A stretch of 64,000 nt of DNA from Nanobdellota archaeon (GTDB taxonomy: Archaea; Nanobdellota; Nanobdellia; Pacearchaeales; GW2011-AR1): assembly GCA_038046245.1 (NCBI GenBank), contig JBBSWO010000003.1:13879-77878 (forward strand), in the 5' to 3' direction. The notes beneath the pieces were generated by a model that had not been told where the DNA came from, did no database searches, and was given only the letters and a program-made list of their open reading frames with translations. Positions 6,118 through 60,980 of the stretch are shown piece after piece (within the stretch, counting starts at the first letter, position 1; each line of letters opens with the position of its first letter). A program made the position numbers and the translations under genes.

Positions 6118-6789
6118 ATGTTAACATTAGGAATTGACGATGCGGGCCGGGGTCCTGTCATAGGTCCAATGGTTCTTGCAGGTTGTTTAATCAATGATGA
6201 AGCCTCAAAGGAATTCAAAAAATTAGGCGTTAAGGATAGTAAGCAGTTAACCCAAAAAAGAAGAGAAATTCTTGTTGAGACAATAAAAGAAAAGGCTGAG
6301 ACATTTGAAGTGGTTGTAGTTTACCCCGAGCAGATTGACGGGACAGATGAGTTCAGAATAAATCTTAATGAATTGGAGGCTTTGGCATGTGCGGAAATAA
6401 TCAACAGGATAAACAAAGGATTTTCAAAAATAAAAGTCATTGTTGATTGTCCTTCAACCAATATAACCAAATGGACAGATTTTTTGAAGTCTAAAATAGA
6501 AAACCTTTCAAATTTGGAAATTTCTTGTGAGCACAAGGCAGACGTGAACCACATTTCAGTCTCAGCAGCATCTATAATAGCCAAATCATTAAGGGAAAAA
6601 GAAATGGATGATATAAAGAAAAAATACGGGAGCAAAGTCGGTTCTGGTTATTCTTCAGATCCTCTGACAAAAAAATTCATTGAAAATCATGGCAGTGAGT
6701 TTAAAGATCATGGAATAATAAGGAAAAGCTGGGCAACCTGGAAAAATTCTGTGGCTTTTAAAGAGCAGAAAAAATTGAACGAGTTTTGA
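6118..6789 (+). CDS. rnhB: ribonuclease HII
   Basis: N-terminal GIDDAGRGPVIGPMV catalytic block, DSKQLT, and downstream ADVNHISVSAASIIAK typical of RNase HII. Confidence 0.9.
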   Translation: MLTLGIDDAGRGPVIGPMVLAGCLINDEASKEFKKLGVKDSKQLTQKRREILVETIKEKAETFEVVVVYPEQIDGTDEFRINLNELEALACAEIINRINKGFSKIKVIVDCPSTNITKWTDFLKSKIENLSNLEISCEHKADVNHISVSAASIIAKSLREKEMDDIKKKYGSKVGSGYSSDPLTKKFIENHGSEFKDHGIIRKSWATWKNSVAFKEQKKLNEF

Positions 6790-6865: not shown

Positions 6866-9730
6866 ATGGCTTACATAAAAAGATTAGTGATGCATGGATT
6901 CAAGAGTTTCCCAAGAAAAATAGAAATACCTTTCACTCAGGGAATTAATGTAGTTCTTGGTCCGAATGGTTCAGGAAAATCAAACATTTCAGATGCTTTA
7001 TGCTTTGCTCTTGGAAGATTAAGCATCAAGTCGATGAGAGCTGAAAAAGCGCACAACTTGATTTTTTTGGGTTCTAAAGTGGCCTCACCTTCCAAAGAAG
7101 CAATTGTCGAAATGGTATTTGATAATTCTGACGAGACATTTTCAATAAATTCCAAAGAAATTTCAATAAAAAGAATTGTAAGAAGGAATGGTCAGAGTAT
7201 CTATAAAATCAATGACGAAACGAAAACCAGGCAGGAAATACTCGCTCTTTTGGCCCAGGCAGGAATAGATCCAAACGGGTTTAACATAATTTTGCAAGGG
7301 GAAATCCAGAATTTTGTAAACATGCACACAGAAGAGAGACGTAAGGTAATCGAGGAAGTTTCAGGAATCTCAGTCTATGAACTTAGAAAAGAAAAATCTC
7401 TTAAGGAACTAGAAAGAACCGAAGAGAAATTGAAAGAGGTCCAGGCGATATTAAGAGAAAGAACTGCTTACTTAGCAAATCTTGAAAAAGAAAGACAGCA
7501 GGCTTTGAAATTTAAAAAGCTCGAGGAGGATATAAAAAAATTCAAGGCAAGTATAATCAACTCTGATCTTGTAAAAAACAAAAAAGAAGTTGAAAGGATA
7601 ACTTCAGAAATTGAAAAGAAAAACAAAGAGCTCGAAAATTCAAGGAAAGCAATATCCGTTCTAAGAGCTTCAATAGATAATTTTCAGTCTAAGATAAGTT
7701 CCATAAATTCTGAAATACAAAAATCGACCGGTTTAGAACAGGAAAGACTGAATCAAGAGATTGCCAATATCCGGGCAGAGATTGCAGGAACTTCGGTAAG
7801 GATAGAAAATTTTGAGAACAAAATTTCAAATATCTTAAAACAAAAGCATGATCTGGAAGAAAGCATAAAAGAAAATGAGTCTTCTATAAAAGATTTGAAA
7901 AAAGATTCTGGAGTTGATGTTGCCAAGGGAAGCCAAAGAGCTTTGGAGGCAAAAAAACGTGAGCTTGAGGTCCTTGAAGACCAAAGAAAAAAATTTTATA
8001 CTTATAAATCAGAGTTTAAGTCAATCAAAGACAGAATAGATGATAAGAAAAGCTTGTTCCAAAGCTACTCGACAGAATCAGATTTCCTTCTAAACCAGAT
8101 GAAATCTTTGTCTCACGAACTTTTTGACAGAAACAGCGACGCCAATTTGCTTTCATCCTTGAGAATATCTCTCTCTGAGAAAAAAACAATGTTAGAGGAA
8201 CTTAATAAAAGGGAAAAAGAACTTGAAAAGTCATCTTCAACAAAAGAGTATGAGATAGAAAAACAGGGCTCTCTGGTGTCAAATATCGCTAAGATGGATG
8301 TCTGTCCGATATGTAAAAGTAAAATTACCAAAGATCATGTTCATAATATAGACAAAGAAGTAAAAGAAAAAATAACTCTCCTTAAAAAACAGATTGAGGA
8401 AGTCGACAAAGAACTTTCAGAAGTTTACAAAAAAAGGGATTTCATAATTAAAGACAGCGAGCAAATTTCCATTGAAACATCCAAAAGAGAAGCTGATTTG
8501 ATAAAGATTTCTTCGATAAACGAAAAAAAAGATCAGGTTAAAGTTCTTCGTGACAAAACAGAGAGTCTGAAGAGTGAGATTACTGAGTTAGAAAAAATAA
8601 GGAAAAGATTAGAGGAGAATATAGAACAAAATTCCAGCATAGAACAGAAATGCGAGACTGCAAGAGTTGAGTTTCAGGAAATATCAATAAGAAGTGATGA
8701 GACAGTAACGTCAGAGATTTCATTTAAACAAAGAGAGCTTGAAAGATCAAAAATCTCTCTTAAGCAGTTGGTAAGGGAAGAATCAGAAATAAGAGAAGAG
8801 CTTGATGCTGTAAAAAAAGATTTGGAAGAAAACGAAGAAATTTTGGCTAAAAAAAGAAAACAGGAAGAAGAGCTTACAAAAAAATTCGAGTCTTTGCTTT
8901 CTCAAAGAGATGAATTGCAAAGAAAGGTTAGAGACACAGAGATTGAAATTTCAAAAAAGCAAAATGATTTGCACAATGTTGAGATAAATATAAATGACTT
9001 TAAAATAGAAAAGGCAAAATTTGATGCAATGGTTGAAAACCTAGAGACGGAAATGCTCGGTTTTCCCGATGTAGAATTAATCAAAGCTCCCAAAGAATCT
9101 CTTTTGTCAAGATTGAGCAGCGCGCAAGACACTCTATCCAATCTTGGAACTGTCAATTTAAGGTCGCTTGAAGTTTATGATTCTGTCAAAAAAGAATACG
9201 ATACTGTCCAGGAAAAAGTTGACATAATAACAAAAGAGAAAGAAGGAGTAATGAGAATAATTCATGAGATTGATGTCAAGAAGAAAAAAACTTTCCTCAA
9301 GACTATTGATTCATTGAACGAAACTGTCTCAAGAAATTTCTCTCAACTAAGTCCTAAGGGAGAGGTTTCACTTGAGTTGGAAAACAGAAAAGAACCTTTT
9401 GAAGGGGGGGTTAATATAATTGTCAAAACCGGACATGGAAAATATTTCGATGTAAAATCTCTTTCGGGGGGAGAACAAACTCTAATTGCACTCTCTTTGA
9501 TATTTGCAATTCAAGAGTATAAGCCTTATTCATTCTATATTCTTGATGAAATTGACGCCGCGTTAGACAAAAGAAACTCAGAGAGACTTGCAGGATTGCT
9601 GAATAAGTACATGCAGAAAGGCCAGTATATAATAATAACTCACAATGATGAGGTTATTTCAAAAGCTACAACTCTTTATGGTGTCAGTATGCATGAAGGA
9701 GTTTCTAAAATAGTGAGCCTTAAATTATAG
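6866..9730 (+). CDS. smc: SMC-family chromosome ATPase (954 aa) with a CPxC motif at the coiled-coil apex
   Basis: The heads are SMC-type: GFKSF and GPNGSGKSN (Walker A) at the N-terminus, LSGGEQTLIALSLIFAIQ (signature) and FYILDEIDAALD (Walker B) at the C-terminus. The middle is ~700 aa of K/E-rich coiled coil. CPIC sits at residues 480-483 (nt 8303-8314). Confidence 0.85.
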   Translation: MAYIKRLVMHGFKSFPRKIEIPFTQGINVVLGPNGSGKSNISDALCFALGRLSIKSMRAEKAHNLIFLGSKVASPSKEAIVEMVFDNSDETFSINSKEISIKRIVRRNGQSIYKINDETKTRQEILALLAQAGIDPNGFNIILQGEIQNFVNMHTEERRKVIEEVSGISVYELRKEKSLKELERTEEKLKEVQAILRERTAYLANLEKERQQALKFKKLEEDIKKFKASIINSDLVKNKKEVERITSEIEKKNKELENSRKAISVLRASIDNFQSKISSINSEIQKSTGLEQERLNQEIANIRAEIAGTSVRIENFENKISNILKQKHDLEESIKENESSIKDLKKDSGVDVAKGSQRALEAKKRELEVLEDQRKKFYTYKSEFKSIKDRIDDKKSLFQSYSTESDFLLNQMKSLSHELFDRNSDANLLSSLRISLSEKKTMLEELNKREKELEKSSSTKEYEIEKQGSLVSNIAKMDVCPICKSKITKDHVHNIDKEVKEKITLLKKQIEEVDKELSEVYKKRDFIIKDSEQISIETSKREADLIKISSINEKKDQVKVLRDKTESLKSEITELEKIRKRLEENIEQNSSIEQKCETARVEFQEISIRSDETVTSEISFKQRELERSKISLKQLVREESEIREELDAVKKDLEENEEILAKKRKQEEELTKKFESLLSQRDELQRKVRDTEIEISKKQNDLHNVEININDFKIEKAKFDAMVENLETEMLGFPDVELIKAPKESLLSRLSSAQDTLSNLGTVNLRSLEVYDSVKKEYDTVQEKVDIITKEKEGVMRIIHEIDVKKKKTFLKTIDSLNETVSRNFSQLSPKGEVSLELENRKEPFEGGVNIIVKTGHGKYFDVKSLSGGEQTLIALSLIFAIQEYKPYSFYILDEIDAALDKRNSERLAGLLNKYMQKGQYIIITHNDEVISKATTLYGVSMHEGVSKIVSLKL

Positions 9731-9836: not shown

Positions 9837-10445
9837 ATGGACAAAAGCGAACTTTTGGATTCTTTAAGAAAACAGGGTTTTTCTGAGAAAATCGTCAACG
9901 CTTTTTCTACAGTTGATAGAGAGAAATTTCTCCCGCAATTGATCAAATTCTTGGCTTATGATGACAATGCGTTGCCGATTGGTCATGGTCAGACAATTTC
10001 ACAGCCGCATACAATCGCAGTGATGTTAGACTTATTGCACCTAAAAAAAGACCAAAAAGTTTTGGAAGTTGGATGCGGTTCTGGTTATGTCTTGGCGTTA
10101 ATCTCGGAAATTGTTGGCGAAAATGGAAAAGTTTACGGTTTAGATATAATAAGAGATTTGGTTGAAAGATCAAAAAAACCTTTGTACAAATATCAAAATG
10201 TCCAGGCTCTTTACGGTGACGGTAGATTCGGCATGTATGAAAAAGCCCCATTTGACAGGATTTTAATCAGCGCAGCAGTTACTTCTATTCCTGATGCTCT
10301 GCTGGCCCAATTAAATGATGAAGGCATCCTTGTTGCTCCTCTTGGCTCTGATAATATGCAAAACTTAGTTTCATTCAAAAAATCGAAAGAAGGTTTGTCA
10401 ATCCTGGAACAAGTTCCAGGATTTGTTTTCGTGAAGTTCGTTTAA
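9837..10445 (+). CDS. pcm: protein-L-isoaspartate O-methyltransferase
   Basis: GQTISQPHTIAVML and the SAM-binding block VLEVGCGSGY; size (202 aa) is typical of PIMT. Confidence 0.85.
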   Translation: MDKSELLDSLRKQGFSEKIVNAFSTVDREKFLPQLIKFLAYDDNALPIGHGQTISQPHTIAVMLDLLHLKKDQKVLEVGCGSGYVLALISEIVGENGKVYGLDIIRDLVERSKKPLYKYQNVQALYGDGRFGMYEKAPFDRILISAAVTSIPDALLAQLNDEGILVAPLGSDNMQNLVSFKKSKEGLSILEQVPGFVFVKFV

Positions 10446-10520
10446 CAGAGCTCCCGCACTTTGTAAAAAATAAAAAAGAGTAAATAAAAATAAAAAAAGA
10501 AAAGTTAAAAATAAAAGATT

Positions 10521-11780
10521 TTAGTAATAACTTTCTCCAAATTCTCCTGATTTTTCAGGTTTCTTTCCAATTAATACTATCAAAACAATTAACAATACGA
10601 TAAAGATTATCGCAAGTACAACTGTTAAGATAACAATTGGGCTAGTCTTTGTTGCTGATTCTGTTTCTGTCTTTCCAGATGTGTTTCCGCTAAATTCTAT
10701 TGAGTTTAGGGTTTCACCTTTCAAGCTGAAAACATTAACTTTGAAGTTATATTCTCCGCTTGTGTTTGGATCAACTGTAACAGTTTTACTTCCGCCAGCA
10801 GGCACGAAAACGATTGTATCGCTTAGTGTAGCCGGTGATTCTGCAACAAGTCTGTAACCAATAACGCTGTCAGTTGGGTTTACAAGCCAGATGCTGTTTC
10901 CAGATTTGAAAACAGTGCTGTCAAAATCGTTTTGGACAACAACTTCAACATTTTGTGTTGATGTAGTGTCTTCGTTTTGGACAGTCAATTCTAGGTTGTA
11001 CTTACCAGCTTGAACGTCGTATGGTAATTCTAGATTCAATGTAGCGCTTACGCTGTCAGTCTTGTCCTCAACACATTTTCTGTTTATATCAAGGCCATAG
11101 TTATTTACAGCTGAATCGCCTTTAACACAACCCTCAATTGCAACAAGGTCTCCAAAGTAACCGCTCTTTTGAATTCCAAGAGTGGCTATTTTAGCTGTTA
11201 CGTAAAGGTCGTTTAAGTCATTGTAACCAATGTTTTTCAAAACAATCTGAACTGGGAATGTTTCTCCAGCTTTCAATGTTTGATCAACACTTACAGATTT
11301 TATAGCAACATCGTAAGGAGTTCTTTGGATGTAAAGAGGTATCGAAATTTCATCACTTTCGTGATCTTTTCCTTCAACCTTTATTTTAAGGCTAAAGTCG
11401 TTACTCAAATCATCCTTAAGCTCGTTTGGTACTACTAGTGTCAATGTTCTTTTGTAACTCTTGTTCTCTTCAACGTTGAAGGGATTTGAATCAACATTAA
11501 CATTAGAGCCATGTCCTTTAATTTCAGCGTTTATTACAACGTCCTGATCATATTGATTTGCAGTAAACCACACATCAATTTTCACAGTGTCGCCAGCTTG
11601 TACACTTAAGTCAGTTAAAGAGGTTCCATAGACAGTAGCACCATCTACATCAACTCTTGTAACGTCACCCAAGTTGTCAGCACTTACGCTAGAAATTACG
11701 CACAATATTGCCACAACCGCTAGGAAAGAAACCAAATATTTTTTGGCTTCCATTGTTTGTTTCATTAGATTTAATTGCAC
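10521..11780 (-). CDS. secreted surface protein with C-terminal membrane anchor (beta-rich, S-layer/adhesin-like)
   Basis: Signal/anchor helix (YLVSFLAVVAILCVISSVSA). Long beta-rich ectodomain. C-terminal TM (IVILTVVLAIIFIVLLIVLIVLI) followed by a short charged tail. Confidence 0.55.
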   Translation of the reverse strand: MQLNLMKQTMEAKKYLVSFLAVVAILCVISSVSADNLGDVTRVDVDGATVYGTSLTDLSVQAGDTVKIDVWFTANQYDQDVVINAEIKGHGSNVNVDSNPFNVEENKSYKRTLTLVVPNELKDDLSNDFSLKIKVEGKDHESDEISIPLYIQRTPYDVAIKSVSVDQTLKAGETFPVQIVLKNIGYNDLNDLYVTAKIATLGIQKSGYFGDLVAIEGCVKGDSAVNNYGLDINRKCVEDKTDSVSATLNLELPYDVQAGKYNLELTVQNEDTTSTQNVEVVVQNDFDSTVFKSGNSIWLVNPTDSVIGYRLVAESPATLSDTIVFVPAGGSKTVTVDPNTSGEYNFKVNVFSLKGETLNSIEFSGNTSGKTETESATKTSPIVILTVVLAIIFIVLLIVLIVLIGKKPEKSGEFGESYY

Positions 11781-11916
11781 AAAGAATCTTTATTCTTTGT
11801 TAAAAGTATGACCTAAAAATGATTTATAAACTTTATGGTGTTGTTGTAATGATGGAGTTACACTAGCACTGAAAGTACTGACATTTAGTGGCTTAAAATC
11901 AGGTTTTCACTGATTG

Positions 11917-12690
11917 TTATAACTTACCATAAACCTTAAGGCTTTTTACTGCATCAGCGACGGGATTTGGAGCTTCATTTATTATTATATAACTGTTGCT
12001 TTTAGGTAGGCTTGTTAAAAGTTTTTTTATTTCTGGCTCAGCAGTTTCTTTGTGTTTTTTCTCCCCTTTTTCACCATATTCAATACCTGAAAAATGGATA
12101 TGCCATTCTTTTTCTTTGGTAAAAAGCTTTGCGGCTTTTTCAAAATTGTAATCTTTTTCTCTGGCTAAAATATGTGCAAAATCAATACAAAAACTGCACC
12201 CAGTTTCATCAACAAGTTTCTGTATTTCTTCAAGACTTCCAAAAACATTCACTTTTCCAGTTGTTTCTGGTGCTAATTCTGGAGTATATTTTTTTTCTTT
12301 CCTTATTTTTTGTATTTCAATTATCTCGCTCTTTATTTTTTCGTACGTGTCTTCTTTTCCAGACTTCCCATAAAAACCAGGATGGAATATAACTCTTTTA
12401 GCTTTTAGCCATGTCCCAACTTTCAAGCAATCAAGTATCCTTTCTTTGCTTTTTTCTATCTTTTCTTTTTCAGTAGAATTTAGATTGATAAAATAAGGTG
12501 CATGGATGCTCAAATAAATTCCAAGTCTCTCTGCAGCTCGGCCAATTTCTTCAGCGACTTTTTGTTCCTTTATGTACACACCATAAGTGAATGCAATCTC
12601 ACATGCTCTTAATCCAAGCTTGTGATATTCTTCCAGATTTGAAATTGCCTCATTCACGCCACCGAGGCCCGAAGGGCCGAATTTTATCAT
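11917..12690 (-). CDS. nfo: AP endonuclease family 2 / endonuclease IV-like TIM-barrel protein
   Basis: Blocks LSIHAPYFINL, RVIFHPG, APETTGK and CIDFAHI resemble the metal-binding blocks of endonuclease IV. The start MIKFGPSG at 12690 is preferred. Confidence 0.65.
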   Translation of the reverse strand: MIKFGPSGLGGVNEAISNLEEYHKLGLRACEIAFTYGVYIKEQKVAEEIGRAAERLGIYLSIHAPYFINLNSTEKEKIEKSKERILDCLKVGTWLKAKRVIFHPGFYGKSGKEDTYEKIKSEIIEIQKIRKEKKYTPELAPETTGKVNVFGSLEEIQKLVDETGCSFCIDFAHILAREKDYNFEKAAKLFTKEKEWHIHFSGIEYGEKGEKKHKETAEPEIKKLLTSLPKSNSYIIINEAPNPVADAVKSLKVYGKL

Positions 12691-12740
12691 GTAAATAGTT
12701 GCTGGCAAAATTTTATAAAGCTTCTGCTCAAGGAACAATT

Positions 12741-13052
12741 ATGGATGAATCAAAAAAATTAGCTATTGAAATAGTTGGAGAGCTTGAACCTCAAGGCAGA
12801 GTTACAAAAGAAAACTTGCTGGCAAAAGTTGCCGAGTTAGGGGGAATAAGTGTAGAGGACTTAACAGATTACCATAAAAGAGAGCCAGCCAGGTCTTTAA
12901 GAAATGCTGCATATTATCTTGCATATAACTCTCTTGGTTTATCTCTTAGCGAAACTGCTTCTCTTTTGAACAGAAAAAATCATACGACTGTTATGAATGG
13001 AATTGGTGTAATGGCAACAAACATTTACGAATTCACTAGAAGAAGTTTCTAA
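12741..13052 (+). CDS. stand-alone DnaA domain IV-like helix-turn-helix protein (103 aa)
   Basis: ARSLRNAAYYLAYNSLGLSLSETASLLNRKNHTTVMNG parallels the bacterial DnaA C-terminal DNA-binding block (R..AMYL...SL.eIg..fg.rDHTTV.ha). Confidence 0.55.
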   Translation: MDESKKLAIEIVGELEPQGRVTKENLLAKVAELGGISVEDLTDYHKREPARSLRNAAYYLAYNSLGLSLSETASLLNRKNHTTVMNGIGVMATNIYEFTRRSF

Positions 13053-13070
13053 ATTTTAAAGAAGTTTTGA

Positions 13071-13583
13071 TTAATTCTTTCTCTTACCATGCACTTTTTC
13101 CCAATCCTCAAACTCATAAAAAGGTGTCACACAATGTTCCTTATTGGAATCTAAAATTCCGTCACAAACAACTCTTAATTCTAAGAAGCCGTTTCTAGAT
13201 GGGCTAAATGCATGTCTTCTCCCTTTAGGAATTTCAACTTCCGATTCATTGAATGAAGAAATATCTGGTGTGGATATTTCCCCTTTATATTTAGAAAAAA
13301 CATAACCTTTCCCACCAATAACTTTGACAAATTCATTTACATCTTCATGAAAATGCACATCTGTTGGTCTTAAAAATCCAACGTCAATTATTGTTTGGCT
13401 CATCTTTTGCAAAAATTCTTCACTAAAAAGTTTTCTAAAAAACAATCCTGATTTAGGATCAGCAGTATATCCTCTTGACTCTAAATCTTTAGCCATTCCA
13501 TTAATATTTGAAATTAAACAATGCTCATCATACCATCTTATAACATGTTCATTCTCAAGGCTATGAAAATAATCAACCATCAT
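13071..13583 (-). CDS. hypothetical protein, possibly cupin-fold
   Basis: 170 aa. HFHEDVNEFVKVIGGKGYV ... EIPKGRRHAF loosely resembles the two cupin motifs. Confidence 0.4.
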   Translation of the reverse strand: MMVDYFHSLENEHVIRWYDEHCLISNINGMAKDLESRGYTADPKSGLFFRKLFSEEFLQKMSQTIIDVGFLRPTDVHFHEDVNEFVKVIGGKGYVFSKYKGEISTPDISSFNESEVEIPKGRRHAFSPSRNGFLELRVVCDGILDSNKEHCVTPFYEFEDWEKVHGKRKN

Positions 13584-15848: not shown

Positions 15849-16055
15849 TTAATCTTTTTCAGCAACTTCTAAAAAATTGCCTTTACTTCGAAGGTACTCT
15901 CTTATTCCTCCCCCTTTAATTGCTATAATATTTTCTCTCAAATCAGGGTTTAGACTTTCAATTATGATAAGTCCTTCTTTTGGAAGTGAAAATTCTTTCC
16001 TTTTCTCATCAGACAAGTTTTCTGCCCTGCCCAACCTAATATTTTTTAAAGCCAT
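15849..16055 (-). CDS. hypothetical small protein (68 aa)
   Basis: ATG ORF 22 nt upstream of, and co-oriented with, 15341-15826. Confidence 0.35.
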   Translation of the reverse strand: MALKNIRLGRAENLSDEKRKEFSLPKEGLIIIESLNPDLRENIIAIKGGGIREYLRSKGNFLEVAEKD

Positions 16056-16185
16056 TTTAAAAACCAGTATAGCATCCTTTTAAAGATTTCTACAATCCAG
16101 AATAAGTGTACCTCCTTTTTATTATCATATCTTTCTGAGGCAGCACTAATATATAAACTTTATGAATGAGATAGTTTGTCACAAG

Positions 16186-16992
16186 TTATTGCTTAAAACA
16201 AGTAGCAGAATTAATTTTGTAATAAACTAAAGATGCTACGGGATTATTAAAGACCACTGCGTCATTAGAATTATCTCTTCCCATAATAAGGTTTATTTTA
16301 TAATATGTATTTGTTGTTTTTCCTATTGTACCCTCATTTGAAACATTAGTAACAGATTTTGAATAATCAAAACTACAATAAAAATAATTTATATTTTCTC
16401 CTTCTGACGAACCTTGATGACATGGTGGATTAAAAAAGTCGTATTCTATAGGGCTTCCATCATTCCAAGATGGAGTAACTGATCCAGCTTGTGTAAAAGT
16501 ATTTCCTGACGTTAAACTTAGTGTAAGCGTCGGTATCTTATTTTCAGTGATTAATAATTTGTCAGGTATAATTCCTTCAGGGCATGTATTTTTTGAGGCA
16601 GAGATACTACTATGTTGCTGGACATAACTAAATAGTATCACTAGTCCTATTATAATAACTAAATACACAAAAATTTTTTGAGTGTTTTTTTTGTTTAAAG
16701 TAAGAATTAAGTGGTAGATTATTATCAAAAAACATACAGTCATTATAACATAATAGAAAATTTCTAAAAGAACAATAAATACAATCTTAAAACCTAAAAA
16801 AAGTCCTGCTTGTAAAGATTGTCCAAGAATATTAATTGAATTTGTATAATTTTTCCAGAAAAAATTAACAAACACTAAATGATGGTTTTTTATTGATTGC
16901 CATACTATTCCTACTATTGAAGCAATTATAAACCAAATTAATGGTTTTCTAATTTCATTAGGAATGTATACTCTAAAATCTCTAGCCTTCAT
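16186..16992 (-). CDS. integral membrane protein with C-terminal extracytoplasmic domain
   Basis: Four to five hydrophobic helices in the first ~125 aa, then a Ser/Thr/Asn-rich soluble domain. Confidence 0.5.
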   Translation of the reverse strand: MKARDFRVYIPNEIRKPLIWFIIASIVGIVWQSIKNHHLVFVNFFWKNYTNSINILGQSLQAGLFLGFKIVFIVLLEIFYYVIMTVCFLIIIYHLILTLNKKNTQKIFVYLVIIIGLVILFSYVQQHSSISASKNTCPEGIIPDKLLITENKIPTLTLSLTSGNTFTQAGSVTPSWNDGSPIEYDFFNPPCHQGSSEGENINYFYCSFDYSKSVTNVSNEGTIGKTTNTYYKINLIMGRDNSNDAVVFNNPVASLVYYKINSATCFKQ

Positions 16993-33995: not shown

Positions 33996-34895
33996 TTATA
34001 AAATCTGTGGTTTAAAGTATTTTCTTCTTCCTCTCCCATTTTTGATGTTCCAGTATTTCCTAAACTCACACAAAGAGCTTTCAATGTTAGTCAATGATAA
34101 AAAAGGATAGTGAGAAAATGCGTTTTTGTAGGCAATTTCCTTCCAAGTTAAAGGCTCTTTTACTTTATTGTTAATATTTTCAAGCATTTTATCCTGAATA
34201 TTATAAAGATAAATCAATTTTTCTTCTTGTTCTTTTTCACCTAACTTTTTGCTATAAATAATTTCAAGCCCCCATTTTGCTCCAGGTCCAATATAAAAAA
34301 TATCATTATCCGTCCATTTTTGTCTAAAAAAATCAAAATATGTTAAATCAGTGATTATTTCATTGGCGAGAAATGGACCAACTAAAGGAATTTTTTGTAA
34401 TACCTGCGAGGCCTCGCCAAGTGAGCCAGAATTATCCACCTCTTTAATCAATTCTTTAAAATCAATTTTTTCTAAATTTTGCAGTATCTCTATATGTTTT
34501 TTACTTCCTTTTTTTCCAGAAGATATTAAATATGCGTTATTGAAAATTTTCAGGCCATTTTCCTTATATTTACTAAATTTCATTTCTAGATATTTAGTAT
34601 CAATTTTATCTAACAAAGAAATCTCCAAATTTTCATATAAACCAAATTGATTAAAAAACCTGTAAAAAATAACATTAATAAGAATCTTTTCTCTGTTTTT
34701 TATATTCTTTAATTTATTAACAAGATAAAGTGTGCATTTGTCAAGTTCCCTATAAACATTTATTATTTTATACTTTAATAGAACTTCATCATTAGTCCAT
34801 GGAGGTTTTTCTTTTAAAACAAATCTTTTATACCAAATTAATTGTCTTTTATAGACAAATCTGAAAAATTCTTCCTCAATTTGATTTAAAGCCAT
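33996..34895 (-). CDS. all-helical protein resembling the 5-hmdU DNA kinase helical / aGPT-pyrophosphorylase domain family (tentative)
   Basis: The N-terminal pattern FFRFVYKRQLIWYKRF...KPPWTNDEVLLKYKIINVYRELDKCTLYL resembles, from memory, the conserved ..eRq.I...R...PWT.D.iL..y.FtNvYR..Dr.sqyL block of that family. No clear P-loop. Confidence 0.35.
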   Translation of the reverse strand: MALNQIEEEFFRFVYKRQLIWYKRFVLKEKPPWTNDEVLLKYKIINVYRELDKCTLYLVNKLKNIKNREKILINVIFYRFFNQFGLYENLEISLLDKIDTKYLEMKFSKYKENGLKIFNNAYLISSGKKGSKKHIEILQNLEKIDFKELIKEVDNSGSLGEASQVLQKIPLVGPFLANEIITDLTYFDFFRQKWTDNDIFYIGPGAKWGLEIIYSKKLGEKEQEEKLIYLYNIQDKMLENINNKVKEPLTWKEIAYKNAFSHYPFLSLTNIESSLCEFRKYWNIKNGRGRRKYFKPQIL

Positions 34896-42340: not shown

Positions 42341-45300
42341 GTGAATTTTTACAAGAGGTATATAAACAAAAACGGCAAGAAGCTTGGCCCATATTATTAT
42401 TCTAGCAAGAAAGTTGACGGAAAAGTGATATCAACATATCTAGGTACAGAACCACCCAACAAACTCAGGCAGCTTAACCTTCCTAAATTTTCCAAAAAAA
42501 CTCTTACAATCTCTGCAATAGTCTTGTCATTAATAATAGTTGTCTTGTTAGTCAATCTTATATTTCATCTAGAATTATTTTCAACAGGAAACATTCCCTT
42601 GTCAACTGTTGATGATACAATACCTATAAAGGACATTCCAGAAAAAACATTAACACCTCCTATAACAACTCCTGCAGAAAACGCTCCAATAATTAACACA
42701 GTTCAGGAGCAGGCAACAATAAATCAGCCTGTAAAATGGCAGAAAGAAATATCTCTTTCCAACTCTGGAAAAACAACAGTTCAACTGCCAAGGGAAGCAC
42801 AAAATATAGCAGTTTACAAAATCAATTCAAATGGACAAAAAGAAAAAGTTAATGATCAGCAAGTATCAATCACTGCAAAAGCATCATCTGAGATAAATAT
42901 TGGGCAAATACAGGAAAACAAGGATACGCCAATACTAAAGTTCTTCAAAAAAATAATAAGCTTCATAACCGGAAAGGCGATAACAATTCAAGACACCCAA
43001 GAAATAAAAGAAGTCGTTATAAATGAAAATTCCAGAGAGTATTTAGTTGAATACGAAACTCCATTTCCTACAGTAACAGAACAAGAATCAGCAAACGGAA
43101 AAACAATTGCACTCTCTAATGCAGGCAGTGTAGCCTATCAAAATGTTTTAGTCTTCACTAATATCCCAGAAAACCTGAATGCAAAAGGTCCAGAGAATGT
43201 GAAGATTTACTGGGTTGAACAAAATGAGTTTATTCAACCTGAAAAAGTTGAAGATAAAGACAGCAACGGAATCTATGATTATGTCGAATTTATCGCTCCA
43301 TATTCAAACTCGACTTTCGAGATAATTGTGATAACAAAAGCTGAGCATCTTGATGGAAACAGGGTTTTCATCTCTGATATTTACAATCAGGTGAAAGAGC
43401 TTGACAACAATTGGAGTGAAGAAATACAAAGTACGGAATATGTGAGAGTCACATTTGAAAAAAATCTTACGAACCAAAATGACATCACTCTCTATCCAAG
43501 AATAATAAAAGGAAATCCAAAGATAGAAGTCTATGAAGAAAACTCTGATATAAAGATTGCAGAATTCACAGACATAATCCCGGAAGAATACAACACAGTT
43601 TATTTGACAGAGTTACAAGGGGAGCAAGATACTTTTGACCTTAGGATTTTAGGTGGAAGTCTTGAATTTAATCATATAATTGATCCGATAGTTGTTTTTG
43701 CAAACATTCAGGGAGTTAACGATATAGGCTTGACTCCTTTAGACAATGAAAGTTTTGTTGTTGCTTACATCAATATCTCCTCAAACAACGCAGAATTTGC
43801 GATTTGGTACACAAACGGAACGAGAAAATTAGCCCCAATAACAATCGCGGCAGCAGTTGGAACAACAGTCTCAAGAATCTCTGTCCTGTCTATAAATTCA
43901 ACTCACTTTGTTGTAGGATTCACAACATCAGGGGGTTTAGACAGGAGAGTTGGTTATACGACCTCAGGAGCAGCTTATTTCTCATTGGCAAGCGGAGATG
44001 GTGCGATAGGTGCAAATTTCCACGACATAAAACTGGCCTACATAGGCGGGAATATAATGTATTGCTATATAGATTCAACAGAAGGAGATTCTGACACAAG
44101 AATATACAACTCTATAACAGGCGCGCTCATTGGAGGGGAAGCAAACATAAATACAGCAGTCAGTCCATCAACAAATCTTAATAATATCTTAGACTGTGTT
44201 GGAGTTGGCTCTTCAGCTGTTGTATTGTTTGAATATGATGATGCTACGGATGACGATGCAACATACCACTTCATAAACAGCGCAAACACAGAGACTGTGC
44301 CAGACACAGATATAGACACAACTGTAGGAAATGCAGGCCAGATTACTGTAGCTTCTTTAGACCAAAACAAATTTGTTTTGTTATGGTATGACTCTGTTGA
44401 TCAGGATATTACAATGGCTATAAGAGATATAAATAATATTCCAATACTTGCTCCTACAGACATAGACACAACTGTGGGAACAAGCTCAAGGATTGCAGCA
44501 GCAACAGTAAAAAATCCAACAACAGGCCTGGACAATTTTGTAGTGACATGGTATGATCAGGCAACGACAGATATTTTGGCGGCAGTGTATGATTCTTCAG
44601 GAAGCGTTGTAACCTCTCAGTTCGTTGTTGATAGTAATCCTTCAACAACACCAAGATTGATGTATGCTCTTGGAGAAAACGATGCGACAGGAATATCTCT
44701 CTGCCCAGGAAATTTTATAATAGCCTACACAAATTCCACAGTTTCATCTGTTTTCAAGACATACAACATAAATGGCAGTGAATGGAACGGAAACTGTCCA
44801 ATTCCAAGTCTGCCTCCATCAGCGTATTCTGTCGAACCAATTCCAAGCATGCCTCCTTTGGAAGGCGCAATAAGGCCAATAACATTCAATGTCTCTGTCT
44901 CTGATTCAAACGGATATTTGGATATTACAAATGTTGCTGCACAGTTTAGCATGCTCGGAGAGCCAACAAGAATAAACTCGTCATGCATATTACAAAGTGG
45001 AGCAGGAAATAATGCTAACTATTCATGTACCATAAACATGCAGTATTATGACAAAGACGGAAATTGGAATGTGACAATTAATGCAACAGACTCTCAGGCA
45101 CAGCAGGGCACAAATACTTCACAAACATTTACATACCAGCTTTTGAAAGCAATGGTAATAAATTCTCCGGTTGGAGGATTGACGTGGCCAATACTCACGT
45201 CAGGCCAGACTAATATACAGTCTAACAACGATCCAACAATAATTGAGAACACAGGAAATTATGAAGGTCCCATAATAATAACATCCAAAGACTTAGTCGG

Positions 45301-45538
45301 AGAGACAACTCCAAGTGATGTAATTTTGGCATTGAACATAAAGGCAAGCCCAATATCGGGATCAGAATGTTCGGGAACACAACTCACAGACTCTTTCCAG
45401 ATAACAATTTCAGGTTCCAACTTGCCAAGAGGCCAGAGTGCAACAGAAGACATTTATTATTGCATGGCTTTTGTTCCAACAGTCACCGCACAGACATATT
45501 CTGCAAAAGGCGCAAATGCATGGATAATTGAAGTATAA
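42341..45538 (+). CDS. large (1065 aa) membrane-anchored surface protein
   Basis: Short basic cytoplasmic N-terminus (NGKKLGPYYYSSKKVDGKVISTYLG), a single TM (LTISAIVLSLIIVVLLVNLIF), then a long Thr/Asn/Ser-rich beta ectodomain. The last ~220 aa are paralogous to ORF 45573-46460. Confidence 0.65.
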   Translation: MNFYKRYINKNGKKLGPYYYSSKKVDGKVISTYLGTEPPNKLRQLNLPKFSKKTLTISAIVLSLIIVVLLVNLIFHLELFSTGNIPLSTVDDTIPIKDIPEKTLTPPITTPAENAPIINTVQEQATINQPVKWQKEISLSNSGKTTVQLPREAQNIAVYKINSNGQKEKVNDQQVSITAKASSEINIGQIQENKDTPILKFFKKIISFITGKAITIQDTQEIKEVVINENSREYLVEYETPFPTVTEQESANGKTIALSNAGSVAYQNVLVFTNIPENLNAKGPENVKIYWVEQNEFIQPEKVEDKDSNGIYDYVEFIAPYSNSTFEIIVITKAEHLDGNRVFISDIYNQVKELDNNWSEEIQSTEYVRVTFEKNLTNQNDITLYPRIIKGNPKIEVYEENSDIKIAEFTDIIPEEYNTVYLTELQGEQDTFDLRILGGSLEFNHIIDPIVVFANIQGVNDIGLTPLDNESFVVAYINISSNNAEFAIWYTNGTRKLAPITIAAAVGTTVSRISVLSINSTHFVVGFTTSGGLDRRVGYTTSGAAYFSLASGDGAIGANFHDIKLAYIGGNIMYCYIDSTEGDSDTRIYNSITGALIGGEANINTAVSPSTNLNNILDCVGVGSSAVVLFEYDDATDDDATYHFINSANTETVPDTDIDTTVGNAGQITVASLDQNKFVLLWYDSVDQDITMAIRDINNIPILAPTDIDTTVGTSSRIAAATVKNPTTGLDNFVVTWYDQATTDILAAVYDSSGSVVTSQFVVDSNPSTTPRLMYALGENDATGISLCPGNFIIAYTNSTVSSVFKTYNINGSEWNGNCPIPSLPPSAYSVEPIPSMPPLEGAIRPITFNVSVSDSNGYLDITNVAAQFSMLGEPTRINSSCILQSGAGNNANYSCTINMQYYDKDGNWNVTINATDSQAQQGTNTSQTFTYQLLKAMVINSPVGGLTWPILTSGQTNIQSNNDPTIIENTGNYEGPIIITSKDLVGETTPSDVILALNIKASPISGSECSGTQLTDSFQITISGSNLPRGQSATEDIYYCMAFVPTVTAQTYSAKGANAWIIEV

Positions 45539-57005: not shown

Positions 57006-60000
57006 CTACGCAATCATTTTTCCCGTAAGAGAAGCCTTGTTTTCCCAGGATTCTGGTTGTTCGTTTTCATCCATAAATTGTTTGCACTCTTCTGCGTTCT
57101 TTGAATCTTCGCAGTATTCTGTGCATTCTTCTTCGCTCTGGCATCCTCCTGGTCCCTCTCTTCCCTCATCTTTCTTTTCACCGCCCCCCATGACTTTCTC
57201 AAAAAATTGTTTTGCAAAGAATTTTCCACTATTCTTTGCGCCTTCAGGGGTGACTTTTATAGAATTCATCAGGCTTGAAAACATGAAATACATTTTTGCA
57301 CCGTCGACAACGCCTTTTACCAGCCCGGTTTCCTGTCTTCTATCCCAAGGAGGGCTTTGAAGCTCGACTCTTCCGCTTTCTTCAAACTCAATTATGTCAA
57401 GCAGTTTGTTAACATCCAGCTCAACTTTAACATTTTCTGCAGGGTTTTGCTCAGGAGGCATTGGTTCAAAATAAATCAGATCATTTTCGTTTATTCTCAT
57501 GTAAACATTGAATGCAATTTCTCCGGTTTCAAAATCCTTCAGCTGAAGCACAAGATTCTCCCCGTATTTTTCATTGAGATTCCTTACCTCTTTCATAAAC
57601 TTATCATCACTCCTTAAATCCTGTTTTTGCTCTTCAGAAAGAGTGTCCATTTTTTCACCTTCTGGGCCAGGAAGCTCGTGATCCTCCATTGATTTTTGCA
57701 TCTCGAACTTGAAGAATTCTCTTGAAGGGAAAAGCCACGTCCTCATGTAAGGTGAAATAATTTCTTTTTGCTCTCCAAATTCATTTGTTGTTTTTATCTC
57801 TTCCCAAAATTCAACACTTCCATATTCTGTCTCGTACTTGAAATTTATCAGGTTGTAAGCAGGAAGCGAATTCTCATTCAAGCATCCAATCCTTTCTGTA
57901 ATCTGCCTAGACAAATCAACATCTCTCCAGTAAAGCTCGAATATACCTGAAATGTGTTCTTCCCATTTTTCAGCAGAATTTGCAACATATTTCTCAAAGA
58001 ACCATGCAGCGAACTCTTCATTTAATGATTTTTCAAGCTCTTTTCTCTGCTTTACTAAATTTTCAAGATCTTCCTTGCACCAGTCATTTCCTCCTTGAGA
58101 ATAATACTTGTTTTTTATTAGATGGAAATTGCTGAATTCATCATTTTGGTTTCCGGCCCATCCACCAAACCAGATAAATCCCTCTGTCTTTCCCTGCGCT
58201 TCTCTGCACGAACCACCGACGGTAAACACAAACCTTTCTTCCTTGTACTCTTCTTTTTCAGGCTCAACCCATGTATCTTCCCCTTTAAGGCATTTTCCAG
58301 AGCATTCTTCTGTGCACGAGCTGATATCATTTTCTTTGCATTTTGCCTCGCAGCTCACTCTTACTTCATCAACATTGCACTCCAGCTCCTCCCCGCAATC
58401 TTCTCTGATGCATTTTTCAACACACGGCCTTACTTCCCTGTCATAACACTCTCTGTCACATCTCTCGCCGCACTCATTTTCTCTTCTTTCTCTTTCATCT
58501 TCCCTTTGTCTGTCTCTGTCTTCATCTCTGTTTTGTTCTTCAGGCTGTGCAAAGTTTTCTTCTGGTCCCTGGACAGGAGGTTGCTCTCCCTGCTGTTGTT
58601 CGCTGCTAGGCTCACTGGCTGTATTTTCTCCAGGATTGCTCGTGCTTTCACTCGAGCCACTTGAACTGCTATCTGGGCTTCCGGAATTACTTCCACTGTC
58701 TCCAGAACCACTGCTTGCCTCATCTCCGACGGCAAATCCTGTTACTTTGGCAATTGACCTGAAAAAAGAGAAAATTACATTTCCTGTCACGCTGCTTTGC
58801 TCTCCACTGGCTTCTTGCGGCTCTGGTTCAGATTCCCGAGTTCCTTGTTGCTCCGATGCGGGCTCTGTTGTTTCCTCTGCATTAGTTTCTGGTTCTCTTG
58901 TTTGTTCTTCTTCAGTATTAGTTTCAGGCTCTTCCTGCACTTCAATTTCTCCCTCACTTTCTACCTCTTCAGCTTGAGGAATTGTGACACATCTTCTGTT
59001 GCTGCAGACATCATTTTCATTCCCACAATCACTGATTACAGAGCACTCATCCCCAACAACTTCTGCTTCTTCAACTTTTGCCTCTTCTGTTTCTGCAGCA
59101 CCTTCCTCACACTCAACACCAGTTTCTGCCCACAATCCATTGACACATCCTTCTACCACAATATCTTCTCCTGATGAACAATGGTTTATTTTTTCCTCGC
59201 CATCAACACACTCTGCTTCTCTGCATTCTGTTAACTCTGTGATTTGGCACACACCTTCTACACAAGACGCATTTCCACACAAAGGATTAGTGCAGTCATC
59301 ATCTGTTGTGCACGTTAAATTTTCAGCCAAACATACTGGCTCAAGCGGGCATCCGTCCTCGCCTGTCCCTGAAAATATGACATTGCCTGAACATTCTAAT
59401 GCATCATATTGGACGCAGGTTGCGCAGTCATCAGGGCAGGTTGTTTGCTCATTCTCCTCGCAAATATGGTTTCCGCAAACAGACACATTCACTTCATGAA
59501 CAATCTCCTCTTTTGCCTGGCATGTGCTTGCAATGCAGTACAATTCCACTTTTTCCTCTACTGTCTGGTTATTCTCATCAAGGCCTGTTCTAGTTTCATA
59601 TCCGCAGACTTTTCCTCCGCACTGCGAGTCACCACAATCTATCTGTTCGTTTTCATTGTCATCAACATTATTATTGCATATTTCCTCTCCTCTTTCCTTG
59701 AACTCTTCAACAAGCCTTTTTTCCCACTGCTCCTGTTCGTAATAAGATTCTTTCTTTTCATAGCTTGAGAACAACTCAATGTAGAAGTTTTTTCTTTCTT
59801 CATAATTTGCTTTTCTTAGTCTGGTTTCTTCCTGCCTTCTCTCTTGATCCTTTTTAATCCAGCAGTAGGTTTCTCCGCATTTCATTCTCTCCTCTTCAGA
59901 CATAGTGTTCCAGAAATCCTGGTATTTTTTGTCAAGAGTCTGCCAGACATTGTTTGACTGCTCGTTCCAGGCCTCTGTCAACATTCTCAGCTCATTGGAT

Positions 60001-60980
60001 TTTCTCATTGCTGATTCATAATTTCCAGAAGCTATCAGGCTTTTTATCTCTTCAATCATATCTTTAGTGCCTTGCTTGAAACTTTCTGTTGTGTAGCTGG
60101 AATATTTTTCCCTCGAGAAATCACCGTTTTCTTGATTTTCAGGCTGCTTGAATCCTTTCCCTCTTCCCTCGATCCACATGTTTAGGTTTATCCAGTTCCA
60201 CATGCAGTCATCACACATCTCAAACCTCATCATTGCATCAAAATTTTCTCCCTCGTAGAAATCAATCTCCCACATTATCAGGTTTTGGTTTTCTCTCTTG
60301 TTTTCAGAGCCAATGACTTCATTCATTAATTCTCTGCATTGTGAAGGATTTTGATTAAAGTATTTATTGAAGGCTTGCTCTATGCCCACAGTTTTGCTTG
60401 CAAGGTTTTCCAAAATTTCCTTGCTTGGGTTTTTGGAATATCCCTCGGCCAGAGTTTTTGCCTCTTCTATTTTTTCCTTTATATTAAGCTGCTCTTCAGG
60501 GCTTTTGAACCTTGTTTCAAGATTCAGCCTATAATACAAAACATCTTCATTATTTTTTGCAATAATACTTGGCCAAGCACCAAGCCATATCTGCATCTTC
60601 TTGCCGTCGAATATCAGTTTTCTCCATGCAGAGACTCCGTTTTCAACTTTTTTTTCATGACCATTGCCATTTCCTTCCTCAACCCAAACCCATCTTGTCG
60701 TCTCCGTGGGTTTTCCAAGGGCTTTTTCAAGCTGCTCTGTTTTTAGAACTGGATCGTGTTCCTGAAAACTAGCCCCCATTGCCTTAGAAAGGTCCTGCCT
60801 CAAAGAAGCTGTGTACACTATAAGCTGTGCATAATTTATATTCCCTGCTTCGTATTGTTCTGCCTGGTATGTTACTTTTTCAATTGAATCTTCTATTTCG
60901 CTGGCAGCAACAGGCTTGATTAAAATGGATATAGTTAAAAATAGAATTACAAAAAACAGAATCAAGCCCCTCTTTTTCAT
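57006..60980 (-). CDS. giant (1324 aa) secreted Cys-rich, highly acidic protein
   Basis: Signal peptide MKKRGLILFFVILFLTISILIKPVAASE. Two clusters of closely spaced Cys (for example CGNHICEENEQTTCPDDC, CTTDDDCTNPLCGNASCVEGVC, CGERCDRECYDREVRPCVEKC). These are separated by Glu/Ser/Thr/Pro low-complexity linkers. No C-terminal TM. Confidence 0.7.
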   Translation of the reverse strand: MKKRGLILFFVILFLTISILIKPVAASEIEDSIEKVTYQAEQYEAGNINYAQLIVYTASLRQDLSKAMGASFQEHDPVLKTEQLEKALGKPTETTRWVWVEEGNGNGHEKKVENGVSAWRKLIFDGKKMQIWLGAWPSIIAKNNEDVLYYRLNLETRFKSPEEQLNIKEKIEEAKTLAEGYSKNPSKEILENLASKTVGIEQAFNKYFNQNPSQCRELMNEVIGSENKRENQNLIMWEIDFYEGENFDAMMRFEMCDDCMWNWINLNMWIEGRGKGFKQPENQENGDFSREKYSSYTTESFKQGTKDMIEEIKSLIASGNYESAMRKSNELRMLTEAWNEQSNNVWQTLDKKYQDFWNTMSEEERMKCGETYCWIKKDQERRQEETRLRKANYEERKNFYIELFSSYEKKESYYEQEQWEKRLVEEFKERGEEICNNNVDDNENEQIDCGDSQCGGKVCGYETRTGLDENNQTVEEKVELYCIASTCQAKEEIVHEVNVSVCGNHICEENEQTTCPDDCATCVQYDALECSGNVIFSGTGEDGCPLEPVCLAENLTCTTDDDCTNPLCGNASCVEGVCQITELTECREAECVDGEEKINHCSSGEDIVVEGCVNGLWAETGVECEEGAAETEEAKVEEAEVVGDECSVISDCGNENDVCSNRRCVTIPQAEEVESEGEIEVQEEPETNTEEEQTREPETNAEETTEPASEQQGTRESEPEPQEASGEQSSVTGNVIFSFFRSIAKVTGFAVGDEASSGSGDSGSNSGSPDSSSSGSSESTSNPGENTASEPSSEQQQGEQPPVQGPEENFAQPEEQNRDEDRDRQREDERERRENECGERCDRECYDREVRPCVEKCIREDCGEELECNVDEVRVSCEAKCKENDISSCTEECSGKCLKGEDTWVEPEKEEYKEERFVFTVGGSCREAQGKTEGFIWFGGWAGNQNDEFSNFHLIKNKYYSQGGNDWCKEDLENLVKQRKELEKSLNEEFAAWFFEKYVANSAEKWEEHISGIFELYWRDVDLSRQITERIGCLNENSLPAYNLINFKYETEYGSVEFWEEIKTTNEFGEQKEIISPYMRTWLFPSREFFKFEMQKSMEDHELPGPEGEKMDTLSEEQKQDLRSDDKFMKEVRNLNEKYGENLVLQLKDFETGEIAFNVYMRINENDLIYFEPMPPEQNPAENVKVELDVNKLLDIIEFEESGRVELQSPPWDRRQETGLVKGVVDGAKMYFMFSSLMNSIKVTPEGAKNSGKFFAKQFFEKVMGGGEKKDEGREGPGGCQSEEECTEYCEDSKNAEECKQFMDENEQPESWENKASLTGKMIA

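Follow-up and report, generated by a model that had tools for sequence, protein, structure and literature searches.

Can an SMC ATPase exchange its hinge for the zinc hook of Rad50? This question is raised by a gene within a 64,000-nucleotide stretch of a Nanobdellota archaeon genome (GenBank assembly GCA_038046245.1, contig JBBSWO010000003.1, positions 13,879 to 77,878 of the forward strand), the whole of which is referred to here as the window. The gene, called hook-SMC in this work, is an ATG-started open reading frame (ORF) on the forward strand at 6866..9730, encoding a protein of 954 amino acids (aa) plus the stop, and the Pfam domain SMC_N spans aa 3-947 with E = 1.4e-52. An identical copy of the protein was found on 7 metagenome contigs. 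The initial annotation of this sequence had proposed SMC-like rather than Rad50-like heads, a chain that is markedly short for an SMC, and a Rad50-style zinc hook at its centre in place of a globular hinge. Based on the analysis presented here, we put the probability that the product belongs to the SMC clade and carries a CPxC hook of the Rad50 type in place of the hinge at about 0.9.

The identity of the heads was determined by comparison with profile and structure libraries. With the NCBIfam models SMC_prok_A and SMC_prok_B, hook-SMC scored 518 and 511 bits, compared with 60-106 bits for the archaeal Rad50 models (cutoffs 700-1087) and 120 bits for the ASRP model (NF045487; cutoff 300), which has only 593 positions against 954 aa in hook-SMC. 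Both SMC scores are below the equivalog cutoffs of 729 and 567 bits (TIGR02169 and TIGR02168, respectively), and, for want of the hinge part, the NCBIfam SMC models match the protein in two separate stretches. The best match in the PDB was the Pyrococcus Smc head 5xei (3e-101), with approximately 50% identity in both head halves, followed by eukaryotic SMC1-4, while the Rad50 heads were matched at ~1e-16. The N-terminal half of the head (aa 1-169, 6866..7372; all features of the gene are on the forward strand) aligned from residue 1 with the Pyrococcus Smc head (5xei/5xns), the arm helix beginning at aa 169 in the structural model, and the C-terminal half (aa 831-954, 9356..9727) aligned with the C-terminal part of the same head.

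The catalytic motifs were invariant, or nearly so, across 70 family members. These include the Walker A or P-loop GPNGSGKS (aa 32-39, 6959..6982), in which N34-N40 were invariant and G32/P33 were conserved in at least 90%, the Q-loop LQGEI (aa 143-147, 7292..7306; L143-N149 invariant) and the ABC signature motif LSGGEQ (aa 866-871, 9461..9478; invariant). They are followed by the Walker B and D-loop FYILDEIDAALD (aa 890-901, 9533..9568; F890, Y891, D894-A898, L900 and D901 invariant, A899 at least 90%) and the H-loop ITHND (aa 924-928, 9635..9649; I924 and H926-D928 invariant, T925 at least 90%). Further head motifs were GFKSF (aa 11-15) and SIKSMRA (aa 53-59). The head and neck were the most conserved parts of the protein, with 80-95% column identity. 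From the SMC scores, the PDB matches and the intact motifs, therefore, the heads are those of an SMC and not of a Rad50, as the initial annotation had stated.

The region between the heads does not contain a detectable hinge. No match to SMC_hinge (PF06470) was obtained from Pfam even at E<=1, either with the whole protein or with the middle 260 aa, which covers the segment around aa 400-560. In the nearest relatives that do have a hinge, the same library detected the domain at E = 1e-31 to 1e-33, and its absence from hook-SMC is meaningful because these hinges could be detected. In the full-length AlphaFold2 model, helices at 169-344, 357-418 and 426-475 lead into a turn, after which helices at 489-588, 592-609 and 617-731 continue onward to the C-terminal head. 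The long helical arm therefore runs over 169-475 and 489-828 around a hairpin at 476-488, and the globular apex is absent from the model, being represented only by this 13-residue non-helical turn, which holds the sequence CPIC. Judging from the model, the two arm strands would be expected to pack antiparallel over their full length. A separate model of the apex (aa 440-530) was obtained with a predicted local distance difference test (pLDDT) score of 93.5 and gave a plain helix-turn-helix hairpin. The predicted zinc-ligand pair Cys480/Cys483 of the CPIC motif (aa 480-483, nucleotides 8303-8314) is located inside the turn in both models, at a fractional position of 0.503 of the protein length. 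As hook-SMC contains four cysteines only (46, 480, 483 and 596), this is the sole cysteine pair in the middle of the protein, and it lies at the geometric centre as had been noted initially.

To define what was replaced, hook-SMC was compared by BLASTP with P0150, a hinge-bearing relative of 1157 aa with its hinge at 517-634. Residues 1-346 of hook-SMC aligned with residues 1-346 of P0150 with 46% identity and zero gaps, and residues 587-954 aligned with 786-1157 with 37% identity, while no significant alignment was found between aa 346 and 587. The collinear parts of the arm are the head-proximal N-terminal strand (aa 170-346, 7373..7903), which is a continuous helix over 169-344, and the head-proximal C-terminal strand (aa 587-830, 8624..9355), with helices over 592-828. 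Between them lies a module of distal arm and hook (aa 347-586, 7904..8623), without BLASTP homology to aa 347-785 of P0150. Thus, approximately 240 residues of distal arm and hook are found in place of approximately 440 residues of distal arm and hinge, and at both swap boundaries the model has a helix break (345-356 and 589-616). The idea that a zinc hook stands where the hinge should be is therefore supported, but the replaced part is larger than the initial annotation supposed, comprising the distal third of the arm as well as the hinge, as judged from the alignments.

The canonical relatives are 1130-1197 aa in length, hook-SMC being approximately 200 aa shorter. Each arm strand has approximately 300 residues, which corresponds to ~45 nm and is 25-35 residues shorter than in the canonical relatives, based on arithmetic from the models and alignments. 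When the central 260 aa were compared with NCBIfam, ASRP and Rad50 models matched with E = 5e-9 to 1e-5, against 6e-3 for SMC models. This would fit with acquisition of the whole distal module from a hook-bearing relative, a comparison to be read softly given the coiled-coil composition of the segment.

The apex was then compared with known hooks, using 23 apex segments of the family. The Pfam model Rad50_zn_hook matched 20 of the 23 at E<0.01 (best E 6.9e-6), and all 23 were matched by the NCBIfam model of Sulfolobales Rad50 (Rad50_Sulf) in the hook part of the profile (positions ~386-471 of 872). Other NCBIfam models with matches were PRK03918 Rad50 (22/23), ASRP (21/23) and arcadin-4 (16/23), and none of the segments was matched by the SMC models (0/23). 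In a Foldseek search of the apex model against 350,542 PDB chains, the top three matches were the Rad50 hooks of P. furiosus (1l8d_A and 1l8d_B) and human (5gox_A), with prob 1.00 and TMq 0.70. A single-sequence phmmer search of the apex against the PDB returned nothing useful and a family profile was required. This profile aligned in register with the P. furiosus Rad50 hook (PDB 1L8D), CPlCkskiteeH being paired with CPVCGRELTDEH. The extended hook motif of hook-SMC, DVCPICKSKITKDH (aa 478-491, 8297..8338), has C480, P481, C483, T488 and H491 invariant in the 70 members, and among 212 hook sequences a T at +8 was present in 198 and an H at +11 in 203. For two family members, a Rad50_zn_hook Pfam annotation is already present in public data. 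Although no single score is decisive, four independent lines converge and support the apex being a Rad50-type hook, which is predicted to bind zinc.

The cysteine pair is preserved in the relatives to a degree far in excess of chance. Among the 120 closest homologues (64-84% identity, ~950 aa), named in the source as SMC of Pacearchaeota, Nanoarchaeota or "archaeon", CP[LVIM]C was present at the midpoint in all 120. One genome per GTDB species was also scanned and the best 80 loci were retained; CPxC was found in 55 of 55 complete and 2 of 2 apex-covering partial archaeal loci (57 in total). The residue pattern over homologues and loci was CP[LVIMTK]C. The motif is thus invariant across more than 200 sequences, in a coiled-coil region that is otherwise just 56-74% conserved. 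In an exhaustive search over 1.84 billion cluster representatives (50% clusters), every collinear representative (38-63% identity, 946-1023 aa) carried CPxC near residue 470-500. The next-best representatives were 1130-1197 aa in length and without CPxC, and the two tested both carry normal hinges. The metagenome-assembled genomes (MAGs) with a hook-SMC gene are labelled Pacearchaeota, Woesearchaeota, Nanoarchaeota or Nanoarchaeia, and the window itself matches contigs of a 0.1-um-filtered groundwater metagenome.

The relationship of the heads was examined by neighbour-joining over 446 head columns, in a set of 107 sequences that contained no Rad50 or ASRP outgroup. All hook proteins fell into one clade, which also takes in a few short relatives of 779-804 aa, and the combined clade was sister to hinge-bearing archaeal SMCs of ~1150 aa, one of which comes from a Woesearchaeota-labelled MAG. 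In the short forms P0141 (804 aa), P0143 (779 aa), P0144 (801 aa) and P0146 (781 aa), with 41-45% head identity, both the hinge and the apex cysteines are missing, approximately 150-175 residues around the apex, including the hook, having been deleted. Taken alone, the hook-bearers were strictly monophyletic in 0 of 100 bootstrap replicates, since the short forms lie within their clade. The simplest reading of these sequences would be one hinge-to-hook replacement, followed by secondary loss of the apex in some lines. As the clade is sister to the hinge-bearing archaeal SMCs, the swap probably took place once, at an early date, among DPANN archaea of the Pacearchaeota/Woesearchaeota type.

Based on these results, a working model can be proposed in which the gene product would be a condensin-type SMC ATPase of an ultra-small DPANN archaeon, in which a Rad50-type distal coiled coil ending in a CPxC zinc hook has taken the place of the hinge and of the outer third of the arm. 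Each chain would fold back into an antiparallel arm of ~45 nm that carries the SMC head halves and, at its opposite tip, Cys480/Cys483. One Zn2+ could then be bound through four cysteines at the tips of two chains, joining them permanently as in Rad50, and the zinc-linked pair may supply the constitutive dimer that is otherwise given by the hinge. With its Walker A, Q-loop, signature, Walker B and H-loop motifs intact, the protein would use ATP to bring its heads into engagement. In the cell, the protein could act in chromosome folding and segregation, possibly with a kleisin partner, and it may have originated by a single recombination with a Rad50/ASRP-like gene. That hook-SMC is the SMC orthologue of its lineage is the best-supported reading, and it would then presumably be the condensin of the organism. 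The full model, kleisin part included, is likely, with a confidence below that for the exchange of hinge and hook, in particular on account of the kleisin part.

As the kleisin is the partner expected by this model, it was searched for by several routes. No ScpA or ScpB Pfam domain was found among the genes of the window, using the precomputed annotation for ~1-41 kb and a scan of ten larger ORFs beyond it. The B. subtilis ScpA sequence, validated against the PDB, was used as a probe, and a hidden Markov model (HMM) was built from 33 ScpAs and this B. subtilis protein; both were searched in six frames against the window and the fetched loci (1.44 Mb). Among the matches listed in database-wide homology searches with ScpA, only Aenigmarchaeota-type proteins appeared, save one "Nanoarchaeota"-labelled contig (P0310), which carries scpA-scpB without an SMC and could not be tied to a hook-SMC genome.

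Several results weigh against the proposed interpretation. By phmmer and HMM, no ScpA was found in the window, in agreement with the initial annotation, or near hook-SMC in the 1.44 Mb of loci, and no kleisin or kite was present among the Pfam-scanned recurrent neighbours within +-10 kb of 59 related loci. The same search did succeed in a positive control, an Aenigmarchaeote locus (L072) with an 828-aa hinge-bearing SMC and scpA directly downstream, and in view of this contrast kleisin-dependent action is no more than a proposal for hook-SMC, although the searches are not taken as a negative answer. The scores for the hook are also modest: Rad50_zn_hook matched hook-SMC itself (aa 473-510) with 15-20 bits, below the gathering threshold of 24.3, the family profile reached E = 0.35 against the hook in the PDB, and the Foldseek E-values for the apex were 0.05-0.15, as expected of a helical hairpin. 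Finally, the arms of the full-length model are confident while the heads have a pLDDT below 50, which can be explained by the shallow alignment.

The lack of a nearby kleisin could mean that the same hybrid protein works without one, as a two-armed, zinc-linked ATPase which bridges or clamps DNA like Rad50 or ClsN rather than as a kleisin-closed, loop-extruding ring. ScpA and ScpB were found neither in the window nor near any of the 59 related loci, the distal module is Rad50/ASRP-like, and some close relatives have neither hinge nor hook, as if the need to close a ring at the apex had been relaxed. However, kleisin genes are often unlinked to smc, as in the scpA-scpB operon of P0310, which has no adjacent smc, and the strongest conservation in hook-SMC is seen in the head and neck, which in known SMCs are the site of kleisin binding. 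We therefore regard a kleisin-free protein as unlikely. A different possibility concerns the motif itself, which could be redox-active or structural within one chain, with dimerisation occurring elsewhere. The modest hook-model scores and the relatives that exist without the whole apex could be taken in this way, but each apex has two cysteines only, so that two chains have to come together, as in Rad50, to make a tetrahedral Cys4 site. In addition, C-P-x-C-x4-T-x2-H is in register with the P. furiosus hook, three independent libraries indicate Rad50, ASRP or arcadin-4 hooks, and the motif is exactly at the tip of the hairpin, which makes this explanation very improbable.

The remaining alternatives place the whole protein in another family. 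ASRPs such as ClsN and Sph, which are hook-bearing chromosome-compartment factors, are archaeal, SMC-related and carry a zinc hook (PMC9389158), and hook-SMC could be a paralogue of this kind rather than an SMC orthologue, the ASRP model giving 120 bits and matching 21 of the 23 apex segments. This score is, however, far under the cutoff of 300 and the 518 bits for SMC, the protein is much longer than the 593-position model, the heads are ~50% identical to Pyrococcus Smc, and the clade is sister to the canonical SMCs. A MAG with both a hook-type and a hinge-type SMC was not seen among the best 80 loci, although this is weak evidence. Membership of the ASRP family was rejected on the head scores and the family cutoff, and the chance of such a paralogue is slight. 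Least likely of all is that hook-SMC is the Rad50/SbcC double-strand-break repair ATPase of the lineage, misnamed as SMC by annotation pipelines. Its midpoint CPxC hook, a length near that of archaeal Rad50 (about 880 aa) and the repair-flavoured neighbours RNase HII and AP endonuclease are in line with this, but on the heads SMC models outscore Rad50 models by ~400 bits, with PDB matches of 3e-101 and ~1e-16, respectively. Mre11/SbcD is usually encoded beside rad50, and neither the window nor the conserved neighbours tested had a gene annotated as Mre11-type. The head comparisons effectively refute a Rad50 identity.

The hook-SMC gene is located in a core chromosomal region, between the genes for RNase HII and protein-isoaspartate methyltransferase. 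The RNase HII gene (6118..6789, forward strand; PF01351) is a conserved upstream neighbour, adjacent in 45 of the 59 loci, and is given as context without implying a functional link. The surrounding region encodes an AP endonuclease, a Toprim/primase-like protein, EF-1alpha, EF-2, the ribosomal proteins S7 and S12, subunits of RNA polymerase, ribonucleotide reductase and an Lhr helicase. Other recurrent neighbours over the 59 loci were a ~405-aa PKD/Ig-like protein (40 loci), the AP endonuclease (30) and the Toprim protein (30). The PKD/Ig-like neighbour in the window (10521-11780, reverse strand) is a 419-aa protein without a significant Pfam family, showing weak PKD/Ig-like and C-terminal transmembrane signals, and is found beside hook-SMC in 40 of the 59 loci. 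It was considered as a candidate kleisin and rejected, as it resembles a PKD/Ig-like membrane protein. A search of the window and of +-10 kb around the 59 related loci gave no second SMC/Rad50-like ATPase.

Some other genes in the window were recorded. Near the Toprim/primase-like gene, a 103-aa protein at ~12741-13052 on the forward strand (15876-16187 in locus L001) matches the bacterial DnaA C-terminal DNA-binding domain (PF08299). At 33996-34895 on the reverse strand, a 299-aa protein with PF18723 (HMUDK_hel), a domain associated with phage DNA hypermodification kinases, lies among genes of nucleotide metabolism that encode NrdR, ribonucleotide reductase, dCMP deaminase and thioredoxin. 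Two very large ORFs, of 1065 aa (42341-45538, forward strand) and 1324 aa (57006-60980, reverse strand), had no Pfam match at E<=0.01.

Variation was also observed among the SMC genes recovered. Some hook-SMC genes carry an intein of ~525 aa, with LAGLIDADG and intein-splicing Pfam domains, within the Walker A P-loop right after GPNGSGK or GPNGSGKS. The carriers (P0012, P0050, P0122 and P0130; L036, L042 and L052) have SMC ORFs of ~1476-1490 aa and keep the downstream hook. In one MAG (CAZOAN01), two hook-SMC loci (L012 and L013) with the same apex sequences were found, which is probably an assembly or binning duplication and not true paralogy. The SMC of the Aenigmarchaeota MAG locus L072 is one of several "mini" SMCs of 818-963 aa (also P0152, P0158 and P0205), which keep a normal hinge and have much shorter arms; in this locus (10001-13191) scpA overlaps the end of smc, and a short second ScpA-like ORF follows at 13314-13505.

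In loci from Spirochaetota/Treponema MAGs (L065, L066, L069-L071, L073-L075, L077-L080, L082, L083 and L085), bacterial SMC_N proteins of ~930-1030 aa were found, none of which has a central CxxC. They share a conserved central motif, F-DEFL-PEGIIT-KR, and L065, the one tested, gave no Pfam match to SMC_hinge. This motif may be a divergent or miniature dimerisation element.

Compared with canonical archaeal Smc, such as the Pyrococcus Smc-ScpA system (5xei, 5xns, 4i99), hook-SMC has the same head halves and catalytic motifs, collinear strands in the head-proximal two thirds of the arm (37-50% identical) and a core chromosomal location. It differs in being hinge-less and ~200 aa shorter, with a CPxC hairpin at the apex and no adjacent kleisin, and in scoring below the NCBIfam SMC cutoffs. 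With the Rad50 zinc hook (P. furiosus 1L8D; human 5GOX) it shares the CPxC at the tip of an antiparallel hairpin, with CPxCxxxxTxxH in register, but here the hook is joined to SMC heads and no Mre11 is nearby. A review defines the two families in terms of these very elements, SMC by hinge and kleisin and Rad50 by zinc hook and Mre11 (PMC10586767). The ASRPs (ClsN/coalescin, Sph1/2; PMC9389158) are alike in being archaeal, with SMC-superfamily heads and an apex zinc hook, and their model matches the apex segments; they are, however, a separate and shorter family, whereas hook-SMC groups with the true SMCs.

The closest precedent for hook-SMC is an engineered one. When the P. furiosus Rad50 hook was placed in the hinge position of B. 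subtilis Smc, the resulting Smc(Zh) supported normal growth in rich medium, although arm geometry still mattered (Buermann et al. 2017, PMC5344682; summarised in PMC7752040). In the converse swap, Rad50 with the MukB hinge was functional in fission yeast (PMC6969161). As both chimeras work, the design of hook-SMC is feasible. Like hook-SMC, Smc(Zh) combines SMC heads and arms with a Rad50 zinc hook instead of the hinge, but it is a laboratory construct in a ScpAB-bearing bacterium, whereas hook-SMC is natural, ancient and widespread in archaea, with part of the distal arm also swapped. SMC-type heads and arms without a hinge have also been described from oceanic metagenomes; these "hinge-less" variants are reported to be bacterial (Actinobacteria-like) and to lack CXXC (Sussfeld et al. 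2025, PMC12153180), unlike the archaeal hook-SMC clade, in which CPxC is invariant. A natural hook-bearing SMC was not found described in the full-text literature searched, which leaves out most subscription journals, and the DPANN comparative-genomics literature examined did not mention SMC, Rad50 or ScpA. Hook-SMC joins familiar elements in a combination that had been met with only in a laboratory-made protein, and here it is ancient, conserved and widespread. In public databases, these proteins are labelled "SMC" without remark on the missing hinge, which represents an annotation gap.

What the SMC hinge contributes to DNA binding, to loading and to the opening of the gate is a matter of continuing debate. 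The case for its being replaceable has so far been made mainly by one engineered B. subtilis chimera (PMC5344682), and evolution appears to have made the same swap and retained it across a large and diverse archaeal clade. With hundreds of sequence variants, these archaea provide a natural system in which to ask which functions of the hinge are indispensable, how the length and geometry of the arm are adjusted to a new dimerisation module and whether the partners changed as well. As a tentative extension, with rather less than even odds, Pacearchaeota/Woesearchaeota-type DPANN archaea could use the zinc-hook SMC as their sole SMC, maybe without a kleisin, the hook having been further deleted in some sub-lineages. 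If hook-SMC is the only SMC of its lineage, these archaea would have done without a hinge over hundreds of millions of years, although this domain has long been regarded as essential to DNA loading or gating, and the sub-lineages in which the hook was deleted would represent a natural deletion series of the SMC apex.

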